A stretch of DNA of 15,932 nucleotides from a virus. The stretch lies in UHGV virus genome UHGV-0132370, one strand, 5' to 3'. Position numbers and translations under genes: made by a program. A model generated the notes under the pieces. It was not told the DNA's origin, ran no database searches, and was given only the letters and a program-made list of their open reading frames with translations. Shown here piece after piece: positions 3,851-14,303 of this stretch; position 1 is the first letter of the stretch; every line of letters begins with the position of its first letter.

Positions 3851-4745
3851 CCTTTCGCAGTTGCCTGCGCCGCAGATTGTGGATGTGCCGGACTTTGAGA
3901 CGCTGCTTGCCGAACGCAAGGCCGAATTTGTTGCGCTTCATCCGAAAGATGAGCAGGAAGCAGTGATCCGCACGCTGGAACTGGAATCTGAACCCGTCAC
4001 CAAATTGCTTCAGGAGAACGCTTACCGTGAGTTGCTTCTGCGCCAGCGCATTAACGAAGCCGCGCATGCTGTGATGGTGGCTTACGCGATGGGCGGCGAT
4101 CTTGACCAGCTCGCTGCCAACTACAACGTGAAACGCCTGACGGTGACGCCTGCTGATAATGACGCTGTGCCACCCGTTGCGGCTGTGATGGAAAGCGATG
4201 AAGCGTTACGCCTGCGTGTGCCTGCGGCTTTTGAAGGGCTTTCGGTTGCGGGGCCAACCGCAGCTTATGAATTTCATGCCCGAAGCGCCGACGGTCGGGT
4301 GGCGGATGCCAGTGCAACCAGCCCGGCACCTGCAGAGGTGGTGCTTACGGTCCTAAGCCGTGAAGGCGACGGAACAGCAGAAAAAGACCTGCTGGACGTG
4401 GTGGAAAAAGCTCTGAACAGTGAGAACGTTCGCCCGGTGGCTGACCGTCTGACGGTTCGCAGCGCAGAAATCATCCCGTATCGCGTGGAAGCCACCATTT
4501 TTCTCTATCCGGGGCCGGAAGCAGAGCCGGTAATGGCAGCGGCAAAAGCCAGCCTGCAGAAATACATCGCCAGTCAGACGCGGCTTGGTAGGGATATTCG
4601 CCGTAGCGCCATCTTTGCCGCCCTGCATGTTGAGGGTGTACAGCGTGTGGAGCTGGCTTCGCCGCTGGCGGATGTGGTTTTGAACAAAACGCAGGCGGCA
4701 TCATGTACGGAGTGGAGCGTGACCAACGGGGGAACGGATGAATAG
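3837..4745 (+). CDS. J: Baseplate assembly protein J
   Basis: ATG at 3837 preceded by CAGGAG (3824-3829), 302 aa like P2 gpJ; the track ORF starting at 3798 includes an unlikely upstream extension. Confidence 0.85.
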   Translation: MAVIDLSQLPAPQIVDVPDFETLLAERKAEFVALHPKDEQEAVIRTLELESEPVTKLLQENAYRELLLRQRINEAAHAVMVAYAMGGDLDQLAANYNVKRLTVTPADNDAVPPVAAVMESDEALRLRVPAAFEGLSVAGPTAAYEFHARSADGRVADASATSPAPAEVVLTVLSREGDGTAEKDLLDVVEKALNSENVRPVADRLTVRSAEIIPYRVEATIFLYPGPEAEPVMAAAKASLQKYIASQTRLGRDIRRSAIFAALHVEGVQRVELASPLADVVLNKTQAASCTEWSVTNGGTDE

Positions 4746-5343
4746 TCTGCTGCCATCGGGGTCAACTTCACTGGAGCGCCGACTGGCGCAAACGTGCAGC
4801 GGGATTTCTGATCTGCAGGTGCCGCTGCGTGACTTGTGGAATCCGGCTACCTGCCCGGTCAGCTTCCTGCCTTATCTCGCCTGGGCGTTCTCTGTGGATC
4901 GCTGGGACGAAGGCTGGACAGAAAGCGTCAAGCGCCAGGTGGTGAAGGATGCTTTTTATATTCATCAGCATAAAGGGACCACCAGTGCCGTGCGGCGGGT
5001 GGTGGAGCCGTTCGGCTTTCTGATCCGCATTATTGAGTGGTGGCAAACCGGAGAGGCACCGGGCACGTTTCGCCTGGATATCGGCGTGCAGGACCAGGGC
5101 ATCACTGAAGATACCTATCTGGAACTTGAGCGACTGATAAGCGATGCCAAACCATGTAGCCGCCACATGATCGGCATGTCCATCAATCTGCAGACCAGCG
5201 GCCCGTATTGGGTGGGAGCCGCCAGCTATCTTGGCGAAGAAATCACGATCTATCCGTATATCAACGAAACGATTATTTCCGGTGGCACCGCGCATGAAGG
5301 CGGGGCGGTCCATGTTATTGACACAATGAGAGTGAATCCATGA
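4738..5343 (+). CDS. I: Baseplate/tail protein I
   Basis: 201-aa ORF overlapping J stop and H start; position as P2 gpI. Confidence 0.8.
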   Translation: MNSLLPSGSTSLERRLAQTCSGISDLQVPLRDLWNPATCPVSFLPYLAWAFSVDRWDEGWTESVKRQVVKDAFYIHQHKGTTSAVRRVVEPFGFLIRIIEWWQTGEAPGTFRLDIGVQDQGITEDTYLELERLISDAKPCSRHMIGMSINLQTSGPYWVGAASYLGEEITIYPYINETIISGGTAHEGGAVHVIDTMRVNP

Positions 5344-6746
5344 GCACAAAATTTTATACCCTGCTGACGGATATTGGCGCGGCGAAACTTGCCAGCGCCG
5401 CCGCGCTCGGTGTGCCGCTAAAAATTACCCATATGGCGGTGGGCGATGGCGGCGGAGTATTGCCAACGCCGGACGCAAAGCAGACGGCACTGGTAAATGA
5501 GAAACGCCGGGCTGCGCTGAATATGCTCTATATCGACCCGCAGAACAGCAGCCAGATTATTGCTGAACAGGTGATCCCTGAAAACGAGGGCGGTTGGTGG
5601 ATACGTGAAGTGGGCCTGTTTGATGAGTCCGGGGCATTGATTGCCGTGGGCAACTGCCCGGAAAGCTATAAGCCGCAACTGGCTGAAGGCAGCGGGCGTA
5701 CCCAGACCGTGCGTATGGTGTTGATTACCAGCAGCACGGACAATATCACCCTGAAAATCGACCCTGCCGTAGTGCTGGCAACCCGCAAGTATGTGGATGA
5801 TAAGGTACTGGAGCTGAAGGTGTACGCGGATGATCAGATGGCAAAACATCTTGCCGCACCGGACCCGCATTCACAGTATGCACAGAAAGAAAGTCCTACG
5901 TTTACCGGGACACCCAAAGCGCCAACGCCAGCGGCGGGGAATAACACCACGCAGGTTGCGACCACCGCGTTTGTTCAGGAGGCACTGACGGCTCTTATTA
6001 ATGGTGCGCCAGCCACGCTGGACACGCTGAAAGAAATAGCCGTAGCCATTAACAATGATCCGAAATTCAGTACCACCATTAACAATGCGCTGGCACTGAA
6101 AGCGCCGCTGTCGAGTCCGGCACTCACCGGAACGCCAACAGCCCCCACGGCGGCGCAGTCGGTCAACAATACACAGATTGCCACCACGGCTTTTGTGAAA
6201 TCGGCGATTGCGGCAATGGTGGGTTCTGCACCTGCGGCACTGGATACACTGAACGAACTGGCGGCGGCGCTGGGGAATGACCCGAACTTTGCCACGACAA
6301 TGCTTAATGCACTGGCAGGTAAACAACCGCTGGACAATACGCTGACTAATTTGAGTGGAAAGGATGTTGCTGGTCTTCTCGCATACCTTGGTTTGGGAGA
6401 AGCGGCGAAAAGGGATGTGGGCACAGGAGATAATCAGATACCGGATATGGGAGCATTCGCTTCTGGTTCGGGATGGTTCAGGCTACCAGGTGGATATATT
6501 GTTCAGTTTGGCACTTTTTCAGGAAACACGACCCGCTTTATCAGTGGACACTTCCCTATACCATTCCCTAATCAGCCGATGGTTTCAGTCAGTGTTATGT
6601 CTGATGCCGTTCAGTCAGACCCGTCGATTCCTGCCCCGCAGGTTTTGTCTGTAAATTTTGAACGTATCAGTAATTCAGCGTGGCGTGTGGCAACCAGTGA
6701 TATCTCACAGCAATACAGATTCAGTTATATTTCGATAGGACGGTAG
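5340..6746 (+). CDS. H: Tail fibre protein H (constant N-terminal part 5340..6389 plus currently expressed variable C-terminal domain 6390..6746)
   Basis: 468-aa ORF with N-terminus MSTKFYTLLTDIGAAKLA..., internal tandem ~73-aa tail-fibre repeats, and a compositionally distinct (AT-richer) 3' end that begins at the left crossover site. Confidence 0.9.
   Translation: MSTKFYTLLTDIGAAKLASAAALGVPLKITHMAVGDGGGVLPTPDAKQTALVNEKRRAALNMLYIDPQNSSQIIAEQVIPENEGGWWIREVGLFDESGALIAVGNCPESYKPQLAEGSGRTQTVRMVLITSSTDNITLKIDPAVVLATRKYVDDKVLELKVYADDQMAKHLAAPDPHSQYAQKESPTFTGTPKAPTPAAGNNTTQVATTAFVQEALTALINGAPATLDTLKEIAVAINNDPKFSTTINNALALKAPLSSPALTGTPTAPTAAQSVNNTQIATTAFVKSAIAAMVGSAPAALDTLNELAAALGNDPNFATTMLNALAGKQPLDNTLTNLSGKDVAGLLAYLGLGEAAKRDVGTGDNQIPDMGAFASGSGWFRLPGGYIVQFGTFSGNTTRFISGHFPIPFPNQPMVSVSVMSDAVQSDPSIPAPQVLSVNFERISNSAWRVATSDISQQYRFSYISIGR
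6376..6401. repeat. Left crossover-like site (26 bp, ttctcgcatacc-tt-ggtttgggagaa) inside H; 6388..6401 is a 14-bp perfect inverted repeat of 8255..8268
   Basis: 12-2-12 dyad resembling gix/hix/cix invertase crossover sites; the reverse complement of 6388..6401 (ttctcccaaaccaa) is identical to 8255..8268. Confidence 0.75.
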
Positions 6747-6748
6747 AA

Positions 6749-7189
6749 ATGCAGAAATATATTTTCAGTGCCGATAAAAATGCGTTTTTCCCTGTGGAGC
6801 TTAAAATCGCTTATCAGGAATCCGGCGAATGGCCCGATGATGGAATCGAAATTGACGACACTGTTGCTGCCGAATTTATGAAGGAAGCACCAGAAGGAAA
6901 ATACAGAGGTGTCATCGACGGAATGCCTGCATGGATTGATATTCCACCGCCAACTCATGAGGAACAAATTGCCGCAGCCGAACTGAAAAAGCAGCAATTG
7001 ATTAATCAGGTCAACGAATACATAAACAGTAAGCAATGGCCTGGTAAAGCGGCGATTGGTCGCCTGAAAGGTGAGGAACTGGTGCAATATAATTTGTGGC
7101 TGGATTATCTGGACGCACTGGAACTGGTCGATACTTCCGGTGCGCCAGATATTGAATGGCCTACGCCTCCGGCAGTTCAGGCCAGATGA
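6749..7189 (+). CDS. G: Tail fibre assembly chaperone (P2 gpG-like / Tfa), partner of the current H C-terminus
   Basis: 146-aa ORF 3 bp after H stop; C-terminal motif LVDTSGAPDIEWPTPPA shared with the convergent - strand paralogue. Confidence 0.8.
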   Translation: MQKYIFSADKNAFFPVELKIAYQESGEWPDDGIEIDDTVAAEFMKEAPEGKYRGVIDGMPAWIDIPPPTHEEQIAAAELKKQQLINQVNEYINSKQWPGKAAIGRLKGEELVQYNLWLDYLDALELVDTSGAPDIEWPTPPAVQAR

Positions 7190-7763
7190 CATCAGGCGCG
7201 GTGCTGGTATCTGTTGCCGTCACCGCGTCAATATAATCCAGCACAGCGTTAAGTCGGGTTGTTTCTGCCTGCGTCAGCTTCCGTCCGGCCTGTAATTTCA
7301 GTTGAATCAGACTGATGGAAGACATTGCTGCATCAATCAGTGACTGGCGCTGTGCTTCTGCCGCTTCTACTGCGGCGCTATGCTGTGCCTCAGTATCCGT
7401 CACCCATTTCTCACCATCCCATTTATCATATGGCGTTAACGGGGCGATAGTGGTTGTATTTTCAGGGTAATCACCCAGAGATGTGATTTCTTTCGATTCT
7501 CCTGTTTCGGTGCTATAGATGATTTCACCGCGATGGTCTGGCACATATTCCCATGAGTTAAAATCTGCAGAGCGGCAGATTGCATAACCGGCTTTATGTG
7601 TACCTGGTGCATCTAAGCATGAATACGCCGGAATACCGACACCCACAGCAAGGTATTCGGTTGATGTGGAAAGATATTCCTTCGTCTCAGCATCAAAATT
7701 ATAAACGGTAATGTTTCCTGCCTTTGTAGTAATGAGTTCGCTATTTAATACGGCTTTATTCAT
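7161..7763 (-). CDS. Alternative tail fibre assembly chaperone (tfa'), partner of the silent fibre cassette
   Basis: 200-aa ORF on - strand, convergent with G (3' ends overlap 7161..7189); C-terminus DTSTAPDVIWPELPEA parallels the G C-terminus; start ATG overlaps the stop of the upstream - strand cassette (TGATG). Confidence 0.75.
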   Translation of the reverse strand: MNKAVLNSELITTKAGNITVYNFDAETKEYLSTSTEYLAVGVGIPAYSCLDAPGTHKAGYAICRSADFNSWEYVPDHRGEIIYSTETGESKEITSLGDYPENTTTIAPLTPYDKWDGEKWVTDTEAQHSAAVEAAEAQRQSLIDAAMSSISLIQLKLQAGRKLTQAETTRLNAVLDYIDAVTATDTSTAPDVIWPELPEA

Positions 7764-8268
7764 CAGGCTGCCCTCACGATATAGTTAAATGCGACGTTGC
7801 GCGGGTAACCTTCTTGGTTTCCAAAGGTGGGGCTCTGCGTAGTCACAGAAGTAGCAGAGTTGTTGTTTGTCCCGCCGCTGCCGCCAAGTGATCGGATAAC
7901 GCCGCCGTCGCCTGCTGTCGCTGCTGGCCCTAACTCCCTACCGTTCTGCGATGGTACAGTTGTACTAGTTGGGATGCTGCCGCTAGCCGATGTCCAAATT
8001 TCCAAGCCGTGGACGTGCGATCCTGGAGACCATCCCTGGCTAGACCCTATCGAACGCCCTGGATCAACCCCTCGCCCATCATCCCATCCACGAATAAATT
8101 CACCGCGCAGGTCTGGCAGCAAAAGACCGGGGTAAGCGAGAGCAAGCTTCGGATATTGGGAGGCGATAAATGGCGCACCGTTGCATTTCAACCAGCCTGT
8201 TGGCGGAGTTGCTAAAGGCCACGGAACAGGGACACCAACAGGTAATGCAGAGCCTTCTCCCAAACCAA
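7763..8268 (-). CDS. Alternative tail-fibre C-terminal cassette (H'), 167 codons, lacks own promoter and start; in frame with H constant part after inversion
   Basis: - strand frame reads GLGEGSALPVGVPVPWPLATPPTGWLKCNGAPF... starting inside the right crossover site; the GLGE codons (ggtttgggagaa) are the same as the GLGE codons of H at the left site. Confidence 0.7.
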
Positions 8269-8280
8269 CGTTTAAGAAAA
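8255..8280. repeat. Right crossover-like site (26 bp, ttctcccaaacc-aa-cgtttaagaaaa), inverted relative to the left site
   Basis: 12-2-12 organisation; 8255..8268 is the exact reverse complement of 6388..6401; lies about 55 bp upstream of the invertase start. Confidence 0.75.
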
Positions 8281-8335
8281 TGCAGAGGTAACAGCTAACT
8301 GGCATCATCTCCGGTTTTTATTCAGGGGGATGATC

Positions 8336-8902
8336 ATGCTTATTGGCTATGTACGCGTGTCAACAAATGACCAGAACACCGATTTGCAACGTAATGCACT
8401 GAACTGCGCGGGATGTGAGCGGATTTTTGAGGACAAAATCAGTGGCACTAAGTCCGACAGACCGGGGCTGAAAAAACTACTCAGGACACTATCGGCAGGA
8501 GACACGCTGGTTGTCTGGAAGCTGGACAGGTTGGGGCGCAGTATGCGGCATCTTGTTACGCTGATAGAAGAGTTGCGCCAGCGTGGTGTGAATTTCAGAA
8601 GCCTGACTGACAGTATTGATACCAGTACCCCAATGGGCCGTTTCTTTTTTCATGTCATGGGTGCCCTAGCTGAAATGGAACGCGAACTGATAGTTGAACG
8701 TACCAGGGCGGGGCTGGCTGCAGCTCGTGATAAAGGCAGAGTAGGTGGACGCCGTCCTAAGTTGACCACCGAACAGTGGGCACAGATTGGACGCTTACTC
8801 GAGGCCGGAGAATCAAGACAGCGTATTGCACTGATTTTTGATGTGGGTGTTTCCACAATTTATAGAAAATTTCCGGCAAATAAGAGTAATGAATCCCCCT
8901 GA
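8336..8902 (+). CDS. Serine DNA invertase, Gin/Hin/Cin/Pin family
   Basis: N-terminus MLIGYVRVSTNDQNTDLQRNAL... with the catalytic serine in YVRVSTNDQ, plus VVWKLDRLGRSMRHL and SLTDSIDTSTPMGRFFFHVMGALAEMERELIVERT, and a C-terminal HTH-like tail; ATG 8336 has better spacing to GGGGGA (8325-8330) than the in-frame ATG 8330. Confidence 0.9.
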   Translation: MLIGYVRVSTNDQNTDLQRNALNCAGCERIFEDKISGTKSDRPGLKKLLRTLSAGDTLVVWKLDRLGRSMRHLVTLIEELRQRGVNFRSLTDSIDTSTPMGRFFFHVMGALAEMERELIVERTRAGLAAARDKGRVGGRRPKLTTEQWAQIGRLLEAGESRQRIALIFDVGVSTIYRKFPANKSNESP

Positions 8903-8950
8903 ATCAGCATTATGTTGATTATCCCTGCAAGCAGACAAATACCGTTATTT

Positions 8951-8968
8951 TGTGTGAATAACGACACA
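8951..8968 (+). promoter_or_regulatory. TGT-N12-ACA dyad (tgtgtgaataacgacaca), candidate late activator site of the promoter preceding FI
   Basis: Dyad about 85 bp upstream of the FI ATG in the 142-bp gap after the invertase; spacing leaves roughly a 30-nt leader containing CAGGAGG (9029-9035). Confidence 0.55.
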
Positions 8969-9044
8969 ACTGCGCTTAGCTGTTTGTCAGGCACAATCAC
9001 TTCAACATAGGGCGAAGCCTAATCCAATCAGGAGGTTCGCCACT

Positions 9045-10217
9045 ATGGCTCAGGATTACCACCACGGGGTGCGCGTTGTTGAAGTCAACGAAGGCACCCG
9101 ATCTATTACCACGGTGAGCACCGCCATCGTGGGTATGGTCTGCACGGGCGATGATGCCGATGCAAAAATGTTTCCTCTTAATAAACCCGTGCTGATCACT
9201 GATGTGCTGACTGCCAGCGGTAAAGCGGGTGAGTCCGGTACTCTGGCCCGTTCGCTGGATGCCATCGCTGACCAGGCAAAACCCGTGACCATTGTTGTGC
9301 GTGTGCCGCAGGGTGAAACGGAAGACGAAACCACGACCAATATCATCGGCGCAGTGACTGCTGAAGGTAAAAAAACAGGTATGAAAGCCCTGTTATCTGC
9401 CCAGTCACAGCTCGGCGTTAAACCGCGCATTCTCGGCGTGCCAGGCCACGACACCAAGGCGGTAGCTACTGAGTTGCTGAGCGTGGCGCAAAGCCTGCGT
9501 GGATTTGCTTACCTGTCAGCGTATGGCTGCAAGACAGTGCAGGAGGCGATCACTTACCGCGAAAACTTCAGCCAGCGCGAAGGGATGCTGATCTGGCCTG
9601 ACTTTACTGGCTGGGACACGGTGCTGAATGCCGAAGCAACGGCATATGCCACCGCCCGTGCGCTTGGTCTGCGCGCCAAAATTGACGAGCAGACCGGATG
9701 GCACAAAAGCCTGTCCAATGTGGGCGTGAACGGTGTCACCGGAATTTCTGCAGATGTGTTCTGGGATCTGCAGGACCCGGCAACCGATGCAGGTCTGCTG
9801 AACCAGAACGACGTCACCACGCTTGTGCGTAAAGACGGTTTCCGCTTCTGGGGGTCCCGCTGCCTGAGTGATGACCCGCTCTTTGCCTTCGAAAACTACA
9901 CCCGCACGGCGCAGGTGCTGACGGACACGATGGCAGAAGCACACATGTGGGCGGTGGATAAACCGCTTAACCCGTCGCTGGCCCGCGACATTATCGAAGG
10001 TATCCGCGCCAAAATGCGCAGACTGGTCAGTCAGGGCTATCTCATTGGTGGTGATTGCTGGCTGGATGAGTCGGTGAACGACAAAGACACGCTGAAAGCC
10101 GGAAAACTCACCATCGACTACGACTACACGCCAGTGCCGCCACTTGAAAACCTGATGCTGCGTCAGCGCATCACCGATCAGTACCTGGTGAATTTCGCCA
10201 GCCAGGTCAGCGCGTAA
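9045..10217 (+). CDS. FI: Contractile tail sheath protein FI
   Basis: 390-aa ORF beginning [19 protein letters not shown]..., closely matching my recollection of P2 FI throughout (e.g. [31 protein letters not shown]); strong RBS. Confidence 0.92.
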
Positions 10218-10226
10218 GGGGACAAC

Positions 10227-10742
10227 ATGGCTTTACCACGCAAATTAAAACACCTGAACCTGTTTAACGACGGGAACAACTGGCAGGGGATCGTTGAGTC
10301 GCTGACGCTGCCGAAATTTACCCGCAAATATGAGAAGTATCGCGGCGGCGGAATGCCGGGTGCGGTGGATGTGGATCTGGGGCTTGATGACAGTGCGCTG
10401 GACACAGAATTTTCCATTGGTGGTACTGAATTGCTGCTGTTTAAACAGATGGGTAAAGCCACGGTGGATGGCATCCAGCTGCGCTTTACCGGCTCTATTC
10501 AGCGTGACGATACCGGGGAAGTGCAGGCCGTGGAGCTTGTCGTGCGTGGACGTCACAAAGAAGTGGATTCCGGCGAGTGGAAGACGGGCGAAAGCAACAC
10601 CACCAAAGTGACCAGTACCAACAGCTACGCGAAGCTGACCATCAATGGTGAGGTGCTCTATGAAGTGGACCTTATCAACATGGTGGAAATTGTGGACGGT
10701 GTGGACCTGATGGAAGCGCACCGCAACGCCCTCGGCCTCTGA
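10227..10742 (+). CDS. FII: Tail tube protein FII
   Basis: 171-aa ORF 9 bp after FI; size and position as P2 FII. Confidence 0.88.
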   Translation: MALPRKLKHLNLFNDGNNWQGIVESLTLPKFTRKYEKYRGGGMPGAVDVDLGLDDSALDTEFSIGGTELLLFKQMGKATVDGIQLRFTGSIQRDDTGEVQAVELVVRGRHKEVDSGEWKTGESNTTKVTSTNSYAKLTINGEVLYEVDLINMVEIVDGVDLMEAHRNALGL

Positions 10743-10753
10743 TATATCTGAAC

Positions 10754-10771
10754 GGCGCGGGATACCGCGCC
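10754..10771 (+). other. GC-rich stem-loop (ggcgcgg-gata-ccgcgcc) in the FII-E intergenic gap; not followed by a U-tract
   Basis: 7-bp perfect stem with 4-nt loop seen directly; the downstream sequence agaacccaattgac is not T-rich, so this is not a canonical intrinsic terminator. Confidence 0.35.
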
Positions 10772-11099: not shown

Positions 11100-11233
11100 C
11101 GGTTGACGATCTGGTGGCAGATATCGCCACCATTTTTCACTGGCCGCCATCCGTTACTGACGTTATGCCGCTGACCGAAGTGCTGGAATGGCGGTATAAA
11201 GCGATTCAGAGAAGCGGGGCCAACGATGAGTGA
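10797..11233 (+). CDS. E': Tail assembly chaperone E+E' (-1 programmed frameshift product; frame changes at 11054..11060, stop at 11231..11233)
   Basis: Heptamer T_TTT_TTG (11054..11060) in the E frame; the -1 frame is open from there to TGA at 11231-11233, overlapping the T start at 11226. Confidence 0.7.
11054..11060 (+). other. Slippery heptamer T_TTT_TTG for -1 ribosomal frameshift (E to E')
   Basis: X_XXY_YYZ pattern in the zero frame of E (codons act-ttt-ttg), with the -1 frame open downstream. Confidence 0.7.
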
Positions 11234-14200
11234 TAACAACCTGCGTCTGCAGGTCATTCTTAATGCGGTTGACAAGCTCACCCGCCCATTTCGATCTGCG
11301 CAGGCCAGTTCAAGAGAACTGGCTGCTGCTGTCAAAAAATCCCGCGATGCAATAAAGCAGCTTGATCAGGCCGGGAGCAGTCTGGACAGCTTCCGAAAGC
11401 TGCAGGCAGAAAATCAGAAATTAGGCGACAGGCTGAACTATGCCCGCCAGCGTGCAAATTTGCTCAGTCAGGAACTGGGAGCGATGGGGCCGCCTTCGCA
11501 ACGTCAGGTTGTTGCTCTGGGCCGTCAACGGCTGGCTGTTCAGCGCCTGGAAGAACGCCAGAAAAAGCTGCAGCAGCAGACGGCGCTTGTGCGTGCTGAA
11601 CTGTACCGGGCGGGAATTTCTGCGAAAGACGATGCGGGAGCAACTGCCCGTTTAGCCCGTGAAACATCACGTTATAACCAGGAACTTTCGAAACAGGAGG
11701 CGCGGCTGAAGCGACTGGGGGAAGCTCAGCGCAGGATGAATGCAGCGCGTGCCAGTTATGCCCGTTCGCTGGAGGTGCGTGATCGTATTGCAGGTGCCGG
11801 AGCCACCACCACGGCTGCAGGGCTGGCAATGGGTGCGCCAGTGATGGCGGCAGTAAAAAGCTATACCAGCATGGAAGATGCCATGAAAGGTGTGGCAAAG
11901 CAGGTCAATGGTCTGCGTGACGATAATGGCAACCGCACTGCACGTTTTTATGAAATGCAGGATGCCATCAAGGCTGCCAGCGAACAGTTGCCGATGGAAA
12001 ACGGTGCGGTGGACTTCGCTGCACTGGTTGAAGGTGGTGCGCGCATGAACGTCGCAAACCCTGACGACAGCTGGGAAGATCAGAAACGTGACCTGCTGGC
12101 CTTCGCCAGTACGGCAGCAAAGGCGGCAACAGCCTTTGAGCTGCCAGCGGATGAACTGTCAGAAAGTCTGGGGAAAATCGCCCAGCTCTACAAAATCCCC
12201 ACCCGCAATATTGAACAGCTCGGTGATGCGCTGAACTATCTGGATGATAACGCCATGTCGAAAGGGGCAGACATCATTGATGTGATGCAACGTCTGGGCG
12301 GTGTGGCTGACCGTCTGGATTATCGTAAAGCGGCGGCGCTGGGTTCCACCTTCCTGACACTGGGCGCTGCGCCAGAGGTTGCAGCCAGTGCAGCAAACGC
12401 GATGGTGCGTGAATTGTCCATTGCCACCATGCAAAGCAAGAGTTTCTTTGAAGGGATGAATCTGCTGAAACTCAATCCTGAAGTGATTGAAAAGCAGATG
12501 ACGAAGGATGCGATGGGAACCATCCAGCGCGTGCTGGAGAAGGTAAACGCGCTGCCGCAGGACAAGCGCCTGTCTGCCATGACTATGTTGTTTGGTAAAG
12601 AGTTTGGCGATGACGCGGCGAAACTGGCAAACAACCTGCCGGAACTGCAGCGTCAGTTAAAACTGACAGCGGGCAATGATGCGCTCGGCTCCATGCAGAA
12701 AGAATCCGACATTAACAAGGATTCACTTTCTGCGCAGTGGTTGCTGGTCAAAACCGGAGCGCAGAACACCTTCAGCAGCCTGGGCGAAACGCTGCGCCAG
12801 CCGCTGATGGATATTCTGTACACGGTGAAAAGCGTCACGGGGGCGTTGCGTCGCTGGGTGGAAGCTAACCCGGAACTGACAGGCACACTGATGAAAGCAT
12901 CGGCTGTTGTGGCTGCGGTTACCGTCGGCCTCGGCACCTTAGCGGTGGCGCTGGCTGCAGTGCTGGGGCCGCTGGCAGTGATCCGTCTGGGATTCTCTGT
13001 GTTGGGTATCAAAACGTTATCTTCCGTTACGGCAGCAGTAACTCGAACCAGCAGCGCGTTGTCCTGGCTGGCTGGCGCACCACTGGCACTGCTGCGACGC
13101 GGGCTTGCTTCATCGGGCAACGCCGCAGGTTTACTTACTGCGCTGTTGTCGTCTTTGCGCCGCACGGCATCACTGACGGGAAATGTCCTGAAAACTGTAG
13201 CAGGTGCGCCAGTTGCACTTTTGCGGTCTGGATTATCCGGTTTACGTGCTGTTGCTGTGATGTTTATGAATCCTCTGGCGGTACTGCGCGGTGGACTGGC
13301 AGCCGCAGGCGCGTTGCTGCGAGTGCTTGCATCTGGTCCGCTGGCGATGCTGCGCGTTGCCCTGTATGCCATATCTGGTCTGTTAGGTGCTCTGCTTAGT
13401 CCGATAGGTCTTGTGGTTACTGCACTGGCGGGTGTGGCGCTGGTTGTCTGGAAATACTGGCAACCCATCACCGCATTTCTCGGTGGCGTGGTGGAAGGAT
13501 TCAAAGCGGCGGCAGGTCCCATCAGTGCAGCGTTTGAACCACTTAAGCCCGTGTTCCAGTGGATTGGCGACAAAGTGCAGGCGCTGTGGGGCTGGTTTAC
13601 TGATCTGCTGACGCCTGTTAAGTCGACCTCTGCCGAACTGCAGAGCGCAGCGGCAATGGGGCGACGATTCGGGGAGGCACTGGCGGAAGGGCTGAATATG
13701 GTCATGCATCCGCTGGACTCCCTGAAATCCGGCGTTTCCTGGTTGCTGGATAAACTCGGCATTGTCAGTAAAGAGGCTGCAAAGGCGAAACTGCCGGAAA
13801 GCGTGACGCGTCAGCAACCTGCGACGGTGAATGCAGACGGTAAAGTGATGATGCCATCGGGTGGTTTTCCGTCATGGGGATATGGCTTTGCGGGGATGTA
13901 TGACAGCGGCGGCTATATCCCGCGCGGGCAGTTTGGCATCGTCGGTGAAAACGGGCCGGAAATTGTCAACGGCCCGGCAAACGTGACCAGCCGGAGAAAT
14001 ACCGCTGCACTGGCTGCGGTTGTTGCCGGAATGATGGGCGTTGCTGCCGCGCCTACAGAGCTTCCATCGTTACATCCTTTGGCACTTCCCGCGAAAGGCG
14101 GCGAAGCGATGGTGAGTCGTGCAGCCACTGTGCCGCCCGTTCAACGGATTGAGGCACCGACGCAGATCATCATTCAGACGCAGCCAGGACAAAGTGCGCA

Positions 14201-14303
14201 GGATATTGCGCGGGAGGTGGCCCGCCAGCTTGATGAACGTGAACGCAGGCTGAAGGCAAAAGCTAGGAGTAACTACAGCGATCAGGGGGGATACGACGCA
14301 TGA
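11226..14303 (+). CDS. T: Tail tape measure protein T (1025 aa)
   Basis: Long ORF after E/E'; coiled-coil-prone N-terminal third, central and C-terminal Ala/Leu/Gly-rich hydrophobic repeats; position as P2 gpT. Confidence 0.9.
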   Translation: MSDNNLRLQVILNAVDKLTRPFRSAQASSRELAAAVKKSRDAIKQLDQAGSSLDSFRKLQAENQKLGDRLNYARQRANLLSQELGAMGPPSQRQVVALGRQRLAVQRLEERQKKLQQQTALVRAELYRAGISAKDDAGATARLARETSRYNQELSKQEARLKRLGEAQRRMNAARASYARSLEVRDRIAGAGATTTAAGLAMGAPVMAAVKSYTSMEDAMKGVAKQVNGLRDDNGNRTARFYEMQDAIKAASEQLPMENGAVDFAALVEGGARMNVANPDDSWEDQKRDLLAFASTAAKAATAFELPADELSESLGKIAQLYKIPTRNIEQLGDALNYLDDNAMSKGADIIDVMQRLGGVADRLDYRKAAALGSTFLTLGAAPEVAASAANAMVRELSIATMQSKSFFEGMNLLKLNPEVIEKQMTKDAMGTIQRVLEKVNALPQDKRLSAMTMLFGKEFGDDAAKLANNLPELQRQLKLTAGNDALGSMQKESDINKDSLSAQWLLVKTGAQNTFSSLGETLRQPLMDILYTVKSVTGALRRWVEANPELTGTLMKASAVVAAVTVGLGTLAVALAAVLGPLAVIRLGFSVLGIKTLSSVTAAVTRTSSALSWLAGAPLALLRRGLASSGNAAGLLTALLSSLRRTASLTGNVLKTVAGAPVALLRSGLSGLRAVAVMFMNPLAVLRGGLAAAGALLRVLASGPLAMLRVALYAISGLLGALLSPIGLVVTALAGVALVVWKYWQPITAFLGGVVEGFKAAAGPISAAFEPLKPVFQWIGDKVQALWGWFTDLLTPVKSTSAELQSAAAMGRRFGEALAEGLNMVMHPLDSLKSGVSWLLDKLGIVSKEAAKAKLPESVTRQQPATVNADGKVMMPSGGFPSWGYGFAGMYDSGGYIPRGQFGIVGENGPEIVNGPANVTSRRNTAALAAVVAGMMGVAAAPTELPSLHPLALPAKGGEAMVSRAATVPPVQRIEAPTQIIIQTQPGQSAQDIAREVARQLDERERRLKAKARSNYSDQGGYDA

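Follow-up and report, generated by a model that had tools for sequence, protein, structure and literature searches.

The DNA analysed here, referred to as the window, is a stretch of 15,932 nucleotides from virus genome UHGV-0132370. Its Pfam families follow one another in P2 order, namely Phage_tail_X, holin, lysozyme, GpR, Phage_tail_S, Phage_base_V, GPW_gp25, Baseplate_J, Tail_P2_I, Phage_tail_fib, sheath, tube FII, TAC_7, PhageMin_Tail, GpU and GPD, and Peduoviridae records match 88-94% of the window at 95-97.5% identity. Both results support the preliminary description of the locus as a P2-type tail module into which a tail-fibre switch has been inserted. The genes and sites of this switch are listed in Table 1. 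Its downstream limit is marked by a TGT-N12-ACA element, a motif that is the P2 late-promoter consensus; the pF activator site annotated for P2 begins 97 nt upstream of FI. The window shares with P2 (NC_001895) the gene order X-Y-K-lysA-lysB-R-S-V-W-J-I-H-G … FI-FII-E-T-U-D, and the rest of the window keeps this order, leaving the switch as the only break in P2 synteny, as had been proposed. In the interval from G to pF, P2 has fun(Z), encoded on the minus strand, and lacks both an invertase and a second cassette, which agrees with the earlier statement that P2 itself has no such switch. The switch lies in the known Z/fun cargo hotspot of P2, and in P2-like phages a DNA invertase is often encoded at the fun(Z) hotspot (preprint 10.1101/2024.10.15.618418).

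Table 1. Genes and sites of the tail-fibre switch, in window coordinates
Feature	Position	Strand	Remarks
Constant N-terminal fibre part, P2 H-like	5340..6389	+	PF12571 Phage_tail_fib 5.9e-65, aa 1-150; ends at crossover dinucleotide
Left 26-bp site, pix/cix/gix-like	6376..6401	+	Central TT 6388-6389; within fibre frame (…LAYLGLGE…)
Sv-like C-terminal cassette, expressed orientation	6390..6746	+	PF21882 Gp53-like_C 8.7e-08, aa 381-468 of 468-aa fibre
Assembly chaperone of expressed cassette (P2 G / Mu U analogue)	6749..7189	+	PF02413 Caudo_TAP 9.3e-34
Assembly chaperone of silent cassette, TfaE-like, 200 aa	7161..7763	-	PF02413 Caudo_TAP 1.6e-32
Silent StfE-like C-terminal cassette, tail-collar	7763..8266	-	PF07484 Collar 1.3e-12; joins 5340-6389 in frame after inversion
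Right 26-bp site, inverted relative to left	8255..8280	-	Central TT on minus strand, 8267-8268
Serine DNA invertase, Din-family, 188 aa	8336..8902	+	Pfam Resolvase and HTH_7; Gin 3uj3; PinE/Cin/Gin identity
Candidate enhancer stretch inside invertase gene (inferred)	8354..8425	+	Aligns with annotated Cin recombinational enhancer
TGT-N12-ACA element, downstream limit of insertion	8951..8968	+	94 nt upstream of sheath gene; position of P2 pF activator site

Crossover Sites

The segment is bordered by an inverted repeat, the arms of which (6376-6402 and 8254-8280) are 27 nt long, 81% complementary and 1851 nt apart. Both sites have the form …ACC/ACG TT GGTTTGGGAGAA; they are imperfect palindromes, inverted with respect to each other and sharing the same central dinucleotide, and the distance from one central dinucleotide to the other gives a segment length of 1,879 bp. 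Gap-free alignment of both sites to pixL/R, cixL/R and gixL/R was obtained. Compared with e14, the left site differs from pixL at 3 of 26 positions and the right site from pixR at 1 of 26; the inner half-site GGTTTGGGAGAA and the central TT are identical to e14. The outer half-sites differ at 4 of 12 positions. The repeat and the alignment thus confirmed the inverted 26-bp crossover-like sites that had been noticed at the segment borders.

When the whole window was searched for the core TTGGTTTGGGAGAAG with up to three mismatches allowed, only the exact copies at 6388-6402 (plus strand) and 8254-8268 (minus strand) were found. The count at three mismatches is not rare per se, with at least two matches in 17 of 200 shuffles. 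A chance inverted repeat was excluded because both cores are exact, inverted and the same as the crossover sequence published for e14 (PMC12529663), the exact 15-mer occurring at the two predicted places only. The same search, again with three mismatches allowed, revealed no third site within the window of the kind that makes a multi-isomer shufflon of one EPEC P2-like prophage, which has three inverted repeats and four isomers compared with the two sites here.

The DNA Invertase

The invertase contains a PF00239 Resolvase domain (Pfam, 7.2e-53) and a C-terminal PF02796 HTH_7 domain (1.5e-15). Gin (PDB 3uj3) matches residues 1-184 with E=3e-93, whereas gamma-delta resolvase gives a distant match only (E=1.6e-33). 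The protein is 84.8% identical to PinE of e14, 76.9% to Cin of P1 and 73.9% to Gin of Mu; at its cut-off, NCBIfam gave no equivalog for the invertase or the fibre proteins. The domain pair and the 74-85% identity to the functionally interchangeable invertases Gin, Cin and PinE are in line with the Gin/Hin/Cin/Pin-like invertase first proposed at this position. The longest open reading frame begins at 8330, and alignment to Gin, Pin and Cin sets the start at 8336, in agreement with the earlier choice. The serine in YVRVSTNDQ, for which closer alignment had been advised as a check on catalytic function, is the catalytic Ser9 and is intact; KLDRLGRS is conserved as well, and Met114 is the wild-type residue. 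The open reading frame is intact and 100% identical to the KP12_3 invertase.

The Cin recombinational enhancer annotated in NC_005856 (cin nt 19-90) served as the reference for the candidate enhancer. The corresponding stretch is identical at 56 of 72 positions, a conservation no higher than that of the rest of the invertase gene, and a Fis-like G-N13-C motif at nt 22-36 of the gene, common to gin and pinE, is inseparable from coding conservation. Calling of Fis sites by a G-N13-C scan and comparison with the Cin enhancer gave nothing above coding conservation. A consensus scan of 6300-9100 revealed no sigma-70-like promoter ahead of the invertase gene, and expression of the invertase is therefore assumed.

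Tail-Fibre Cassettes and Chaperones

In its present form, the fibre gene encodes an open 468-aa protein. Flipping the segment in silico yielded an uninterrupted 518-aa fibre, with …GLGE… read in the same frame at both junctions. The constant part can be joined to either cassette because the left site sits within the fibre reading frame. With positions 6140-6639 as the query, related phages match until 6401-6402 and diverge beyond, and the expressed cassette is 98% identical to part of a side tail fibre gene in Escherichia phage SKA5, in a match that begins at the site. The chaperone genes at 6749-7189 (plus) and 7161-7763 (minus) are convergent and overlap by 29 nt; both belong to Caudo_TAP, as expected for the two convergent tail-fibre assembly genes recognised initially.

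The minus-strand cassette had been described as lacking a start codon and a promoter of its own. The former holds inside the segment, where no start codon for this cassette was found, and requires correction outside it: an ORF finder extends the frame to ATGs at 8308/8305 (181 aa), which are located in the interval separating the right site from the invertase gene and directly abut a GGAG. With regard to the latter, the promoter-like matches in 6300-9100 are not above shuffle expectation (4 found compared with 3.6 expected), and no match has a position suited to driving the invertase or the silent cassette. PGAP labels a homologue of the silent cassette 'phage tail protein'; the minus-strand ORF of this name at 7763-8308 is an alternative C-terminal cassette and no free-standing gene. 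With a site in frame and two cassettes, each with its own chaperone, the locus has the architecture of the Mu G, P1 C and e14 P segments to which it was likened at the outset.

Both Orientations in Public Records

Contig KP12_3 of Klebsiella phage KP12 (OM835953) carries the same element with the segment inverted exactly at the two sites: positions 3888-6402 (97.2%) and 8254-10771 (99.9%) match on the minus strand, and positions 6385-8271 (99.6%) match on the plus strand. The junction flipped in silico is 100% covered by this record at 99.4% identity, and the whole flipped fibre gene matches it at 99.36%. The fibre copy of KP12 has a 1-nt deletion within a G run, so that this record alone is no proof of a functional flipped fibre. 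The junction in window orientation is present at full length in 43 E. coli genomes. As the KP12_3 segment is inverted exactly at the sites, both orientations exist in nature, as established by comparison between records and not within one isolate. A 22-nt exact site pattern scanned over genome contigs returned one species, Escherichia sp. MOD1-EC7003, the pattern being too specific for orientation statistics.

Discussion

The anatomy of the locus, the compatibility of the reading frames and the family membership of enzyme and sites are established here. We consider it very probable that the locus is a functional Din-family (Gin/Cin/Pin/Hin-type) inversion switch located at the end of the late operon (V-W-J-I-H-G) in a P2-like prophage of the Peduoviridae. 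The 188-aa invertase would bind both inverted 26-bp sites and cut the central TT, and subunit rotation would invert the 1,879-bp segment, probably with a requirement for Fis and for an enhancer within the 5' portion of the invertase gene. The 350-aa constant N-terminal part, which attaches to the baseplate, would be joined to one of two receptor-binding C-terminal cassettes, i.e., the Gp53-like_C cassette (6390-6746) in the window orientation and the StfE-like collar cassette (7763-8266) in the inverted one, and inversion would put the matching chaperone gene into the late transcript behind each cassette. Given two cassette choices, one lysogen population would therefore be expected to release two kinds of virion with differing receptor specificity, and this would be bet-hedging on host range of the kind found in Mu, P1 and e14. 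We infer that the switch is active in this isolate and dependent on Fis, and the same applies to the receptors that its two products would recognise. The prophage fibre is best described as two forms, and users of such prophages or of P2-derived particles should regard the receptor specificity of a lysate as that of a mixture.

A fossil switch, with the layout inherited but inversion lost through a silent invertase or unproductive sites and the fibre fixed as Gp53-like_C, would fit the absence of a promoter-like site upstream of the invertase in our scan and the outer half-sites differing at 4 of 12 positions, and the relative CP019275, with its frameshifted invertase, indicates that decay occurs in the group. 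We nevertheless regard such a loss as very improbable here: the invertase frame is intact and matches at 100% identity its counterpart in KP12_3, where the segment has the opposite orientation; the reading frames of the two cassettes and the two chaperones are open; and the sites, 3/26 and 1/26 off pixL and pixR, have inner half-sites and a central TT identical to those of e14, the segment of which inverts experimentally (PMC12529663).

A working inversion switch could in addition serve the lysogen. The inverted e14 fusion StfE2 is reported to block adsorption of phage T2 (PMC12529663), and by analogy a StfE-like cassette expressed from the prophage, either in the inverted state or with a start at the ATGs 8308/8305 just outside the segment, could alter the susceptibility of the host to other phages. 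Such a role seems very improbable to us; if true, the P2-type switch would combine its host-range function with phase-variable defence.

It is extremely improbable that the sites are mere hotspots for fibre-module swaps between phages, with the second cassette a by-product: identity to relatives does break off at the sites or close to them (that to Cartapus resumes at 8254, the KP12 segment borders are 6385 and 8271, and the matches of SKA5 and MET_P1_103_31 begin at 6377 and 6385, respectively), but Din systems are known to give rise to module exchange, which is compatible with inversion, and the adjacent intact invertase, the inverted sites, the frame compatibility and the flipped record of the same element would be left unexplained by exchange alone.

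Among known inversion switches, the P segment of e14, a cryptic prophage of E. coli K-12, with its invertase PinE is the closest overall to the switch described here. The gene order (stfP-tfaP / tfaE-stfE / pinE) is the same, the convergent overlap of tfaP and tfaE is also 29 nt, and nucleotide identity to e14 is 88% over 7034-7804 (3' end of tfaP, tfaE and 3' end of stfE) and 79% over 8049-8797 (5' part of stfE through pinE). The segment length of 1,879 bp compares with 1,797 bp in e14 (PMC12529663). In contrast to e14, which is lambdoid and defective and in which the StfP constant part is short, the window has a P2 H-type fibre and an apparently complete P2-type tail module, and the expressed Gp53-like_C cassette is unrelated in DNA to the StfP C terminus (no blastn match for 6402-7033). 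The Mu G/Gin and P1 C/Cin systems share with the window a constant fibre part, a site in the open reading frame, the arrangement Sv-U / U'-Sv' with the invertase next to it, an invertase 74-77% identical, the site consensus and the mechanism. They differ in that their segments are 3.0 and 4.2 kb long, their cassettes are larger and unrelated, and the phages are not P2-like; the central dinucleotide of gix is TC compared with TT here. Invertible tail-fibre loci are also known from P2-like prophages and phages, which belong to the same phage family, namely the P2-like prophages of EPEC E2348/69, the P2-like prophage Fels-2 with Fin, the Escherichia phages Cartapus, 500465-1 and pro483, and the Klebsiella Kp48xx prophages. 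All have the same insertion point, between the fibre chaperone gene and the pF/sheath operon, with the invertase and flanks 95-97% identical, and the difference is confined to the particular cassette pair.

The novelty suggested by the preliminary description did not hold, as inversion in two EPEC P2-like prophages has already been demonstrated by PCR and whole-genome sequencing (PMC4272514), and the Fels-2 prophage encodes a characterised invertase, Fin. A Gin/Pin-type switch that swaps the tail-fibre tip is thus real but ordinary, already known, described and tested before, and of little significance beyond correct annotation. The window can be used as a clean positive control in scans for invertible segments. 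Nor is the switch rare in P2 modules, as had been implied: of 5,426 complete E. coli genomes, 674 (approximately one in eight) contain the junction that links the invertase through the late promoter to the sheath gene, as do many named Peduoviridae, and the same insertion is already annotated in such phages as Cartapus, 500465-1, pro483 and those of the Kp48xx series.

Segment Architecture and the Predicted Fibre Exchange

A preliminary description of this region had proposed a tail-fibre inversion switch, and all the elements that it listed, i.e., the invertase, the inverted sites, the convergent assembly genes and the minus-strand fibre frame, were recovered by a repeat finder, ORF analysis and Pfam at the positions it had given. 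The left site lies within the fibre ORF (…AGLLAYLGLGE|AAKRDVG…), and the right site, read as its reverse complement (…FLNVGLGE|GSALPVG…), is in the same phase. As found, the fibre has 468 aa and a Gp53-like_C end; flipping the segment in silico, which joins 5340-6389 to the reverse complement of 7763-8266, gives an open fibre of 518 aa with the collar domain at its new C-terminus. Behind each cassette, on the same strand as that cassette, comes a chaperone gene; the two chaperone genes have 29 nt in common, the very overlap seen between tfaP and tfaE of e14.

Coordinates of the switch components, site halves (written with the constant side at left: outer half, centre, inner half) and alignment to the KP12_3 locus (OM835953.1, 945-7826)
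Feature	Position	Strand	Details
Caudo_TAP gene	6749-7189	+	Pfam; convergent with 7161-7763
Caudo_TAP gene	7161-7763	-	Pfam; convergent with 6749-7189
Tail-collar-domain frame	7763-8266	-	ORF finder extends it to ATGs 8308/8305, outside the segment
Invertase ORF	8336-8902		Resolvase (7e-53) and HTH_7 (1.5e-15) domains, Pfam
Window left site	6376-6401		TTCTCGCATACC, TT, GGTTTGGGAGAA
Window right site	8255-8280		TTTTCTTAAACG, TT, GGTTTGGGAGAA
e14 pixL			CTCTCGAAAACC, TT, GGTTTGGGAGAA
e14 pixR			TTTTCATAAACG, TT, GGTTTGGGAGAA
P1 cixL			CAATCCTAAACC, TT, GGTTTAAGAGAA
P1 cixR			TTATCCAATACC, TT, GGTTTAAGAGAA
Mu gix			TTATCCAAAACC, TC, GGTTTACAGGAA
KP12_3 piece	3888-6402	minus in KP12_3	97.2% identity
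KP12_3 piece	6385-8271	plus in KP12_3	99.6% identity
KP12_3 piece	8254-10771	minus in KP12_3	99.9% identity

Two further repeats lie inside the segment. An 18-nt inverted repeat (7099-7116/7225-7242, 89% complementary) is found on either side of the chaperone gene convergence because similar Tfa C-termini (…LDYLDA… and …LDYIDA…) are encoded on opposite strands. The copies of a 25-nt direct repeat (7519-7543/8094-8118, 84%) are read on the minus strand as VPDHRGEII, which belongs to the N-terminal extension of the TfaE-like chaperone, and as LPDLRGEFI, which belongs to the fibre cassette and lies directly downstream of its Pfam collar-domain match; the additional N-terminal 77 aa of this chaperone may therefore include a fibre-derived fragment.

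Recombination Sites and Invertase

The longest inverted pair reported by the repeat finder in 5500-9500 has arms of 27 nt (6376-6402/8254-8280, 81% complementary, 1851 nt apart). Its exact core, TTGGTTTGGGAGAAG, occurs in the whole window only at 6388-6402 (+) and 8254-8268 (-), with up to three mismatches allowed. Inversion needs identical central dinucleotides in both sites, and those of the window are the same once one site is inverted; aligned to gix, cix and pix, they have the TT centre of pix and cix. The e14 P segment inverts experimentally at TTGGTTTGGGAGAAGG and CCTTCTCCCAAACCAA (PMC12529663, 2025), and 15 of the 16 bases of these crossover sites are common to the window, at either site.

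Using fetched references (e14 in MG1655, NC_000913; P1, NC_005856; Mu, NC_000929), we found the invertase to be 84.8% identical to PinE, 76.9% to Cin and 73.9% to Gin, and the solved Gin structure aligns with its residues 1-184 (E=3e-93). The active-site motif YVRVSTNDQ, with the catalytic Ser already read as intact, is indeed so, and residue 114 is the wild-type Met, whereas crystallised Gin carries Val. A putative Fis enhancer is located at 8354-8425, where the gene aligns with the enhancer annotated in cin (nt 19-90); the two are identical at 56 of 72 positions, a conservation not above that of the remainder of the invertase gene. Consensus scanning found no invertase promoter. A perfect 12-nt inverted repeat, ATTCAGGGGGAT/ATCCCCCTGAAT (8320-8331/8893-8904), flanks the gene almost exactly, from ribosome-binding site to stop codon, and could be due to chance or a remnant of the acquisition of the invertase gene.

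Both Orientations in Public Records

In a local blastn of the window, GenBank OM835953 (Klebsiella phage KP12, contig KP12_3) carries the same element in three pieces, whose overlap is confined to the 18 bases common to the sites. The left junction flipped in silico (500 nt) is 100% covered in KP12_3 at 99.4% identity, and for the flipped fibre gene as a whole the identity is 99.36%, the KP12_3 copy having a 1-nt deletion within a GGGG run. The junction in the window orientation is present at full length, with 97-99% identity, in 43 complete E. coli genomes. Since KP12_3 carries the flipped form and these genomes the window form, comparison between isolates indicates that either orientation of the segment occurs within the same flanks and that the breakpoints coincide with the predicted sites.

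The deletion in KP12_3 splits the annotation of the flipped fibre into 'tail fiber protein' and 'hypothetical protein'. OM835953 is labelled as Vequintavirinae; as KP12_3 is P2-like and 97-99.9% identical to window 3888-10771, this contig probably stems from a host prophage whose DNA was assembled together with that of the lytic phage. The draft assembly available for Escherichia sp. MOD1-EC7003 includes a 1,860-bp contig (NZ_PTRE01000296.1) that bears at both ends inverted copies, at least 64 nt long, of window 6339-6402, which comprises the last part of the fibre constant region and the site. Such a contig break is expected of an invertible segment, with inverted repeats here much longer than 26 bp.

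The invertase of the relative CP019275 is frameshifted, which might suggest that the switch is a fossil in the present element too; this is unlikely, as the ORFs of its switch are intact, its sites are pix-like and the flipped KP12_3 copy carries an identical invertase. Enzyme, sites, frames and the two orientations between records confirm the observation and bear out the proposed mechanism, a tail-fibre inversion switch, with orientation judged by comparing isolates. Cassettes are also exchanged at the sites, as shown by identity to relatives ending at or near them; this was rejected as an alternative to inversion and counts as a known side-effect of such systems.

From the site onward, the expressed cassette (6377-6639) shares 98% identity with a portion of a 'side tail fiber protein' from Escherichia phage SKA5 (OR670062, 37.6 kb) and 99% with Salmonella phage MET_P1_103_31. 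These matches show one cassette in circulation across different phages, bounded by the site.

A Widespread Feature of P2-like Prophages

The window covers a P2-type late region, and its Pfam families follow the order of P2: tail protein X, holin, lysozyme, two ORFs at the lysA/lysB position (no Pfam matches), GpR, the S morphogenesis protein, baseplate V/W/J/I and a Phage_tail_fib-type fibre upstream of the switch, and sheath FI, tube FII, chaperone E, tape measure, GpU and GpD downstream. Megablast matches Peduoviridae records (Escherichia phage 500465-1, Klebsiella Kp48xx prophages, E. coli p13P477T-2) over 88-94% of the window at 95-97.5% identity. P2 itself lacks the switch, as stated in the preliminary description: it encodes no invertase, and the gene found between G and its pF activator site is fun(Z), on the minus strand. 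The same insertion is found in Escherichia phages Cartapus (invertase annotated 'Mu phage Gin invertase homolog'), 500465-1, pro483 and 'P2' from O157:H43 T22, and in about two dozen Klebsiella prophages. In the intergenic region between invertase and sheath genes, a TGT-N12-ACA element precedes FI by 94 nt. We used a 601-nt query spanning the invertase 3' end, this region and the sheath gene start, counted at 80% coverage or more. Among 5,426 complete E. coli genomes, 674 carry it, and the annotation there reads 'recombinase family protein | phage tail sheath protein'.

Fels-2 of Salmonella is another P2-like prophage. Its Fin invertase is described, in papers citing Kutsukake (2006), as sufficiently active to invert the flagellar H segment. 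In EPEC E2348/69, phase variation by inversion was reported for two P2-like prophages, one having three inverted repeats and four isomers, and the authors linked all of these to alternative tail-fibre ends (Goldberg et al., 2014, PMC4272514). The Z/fun hotspot of P2-like phages is noted to encode a DNA invertase often, together with inversion of neighbouring genes (2024 preprint on hyper-variability hotspots, 10.1101/2024.10.15.618418). Altogether, the element is an ordinary, widespread and previously described feature of P2-like prophages.

Elsewhere in the late region, a 369-aa minus-strand ORF (12653-13762) within the tape-measure ORF matches no Pfam family and is probably spurious. The tape-measure ORF itself (11226-14303) encodes 1,025 aa, versus ~815 aa (2,448 nt) in P2. 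The S-V gap is only 68 nt (2847-2916). In a close E. coli relative (NZ_CM151387.1; locus L004, 1-1202, a stretch ending before gene S), a PcfJ-domain gene and another encoding a hypothetical protein lie immediately upstream of V, and the S-V interval looks like a further cargo hotspot of P2-like prophages, unoccupied in the window.
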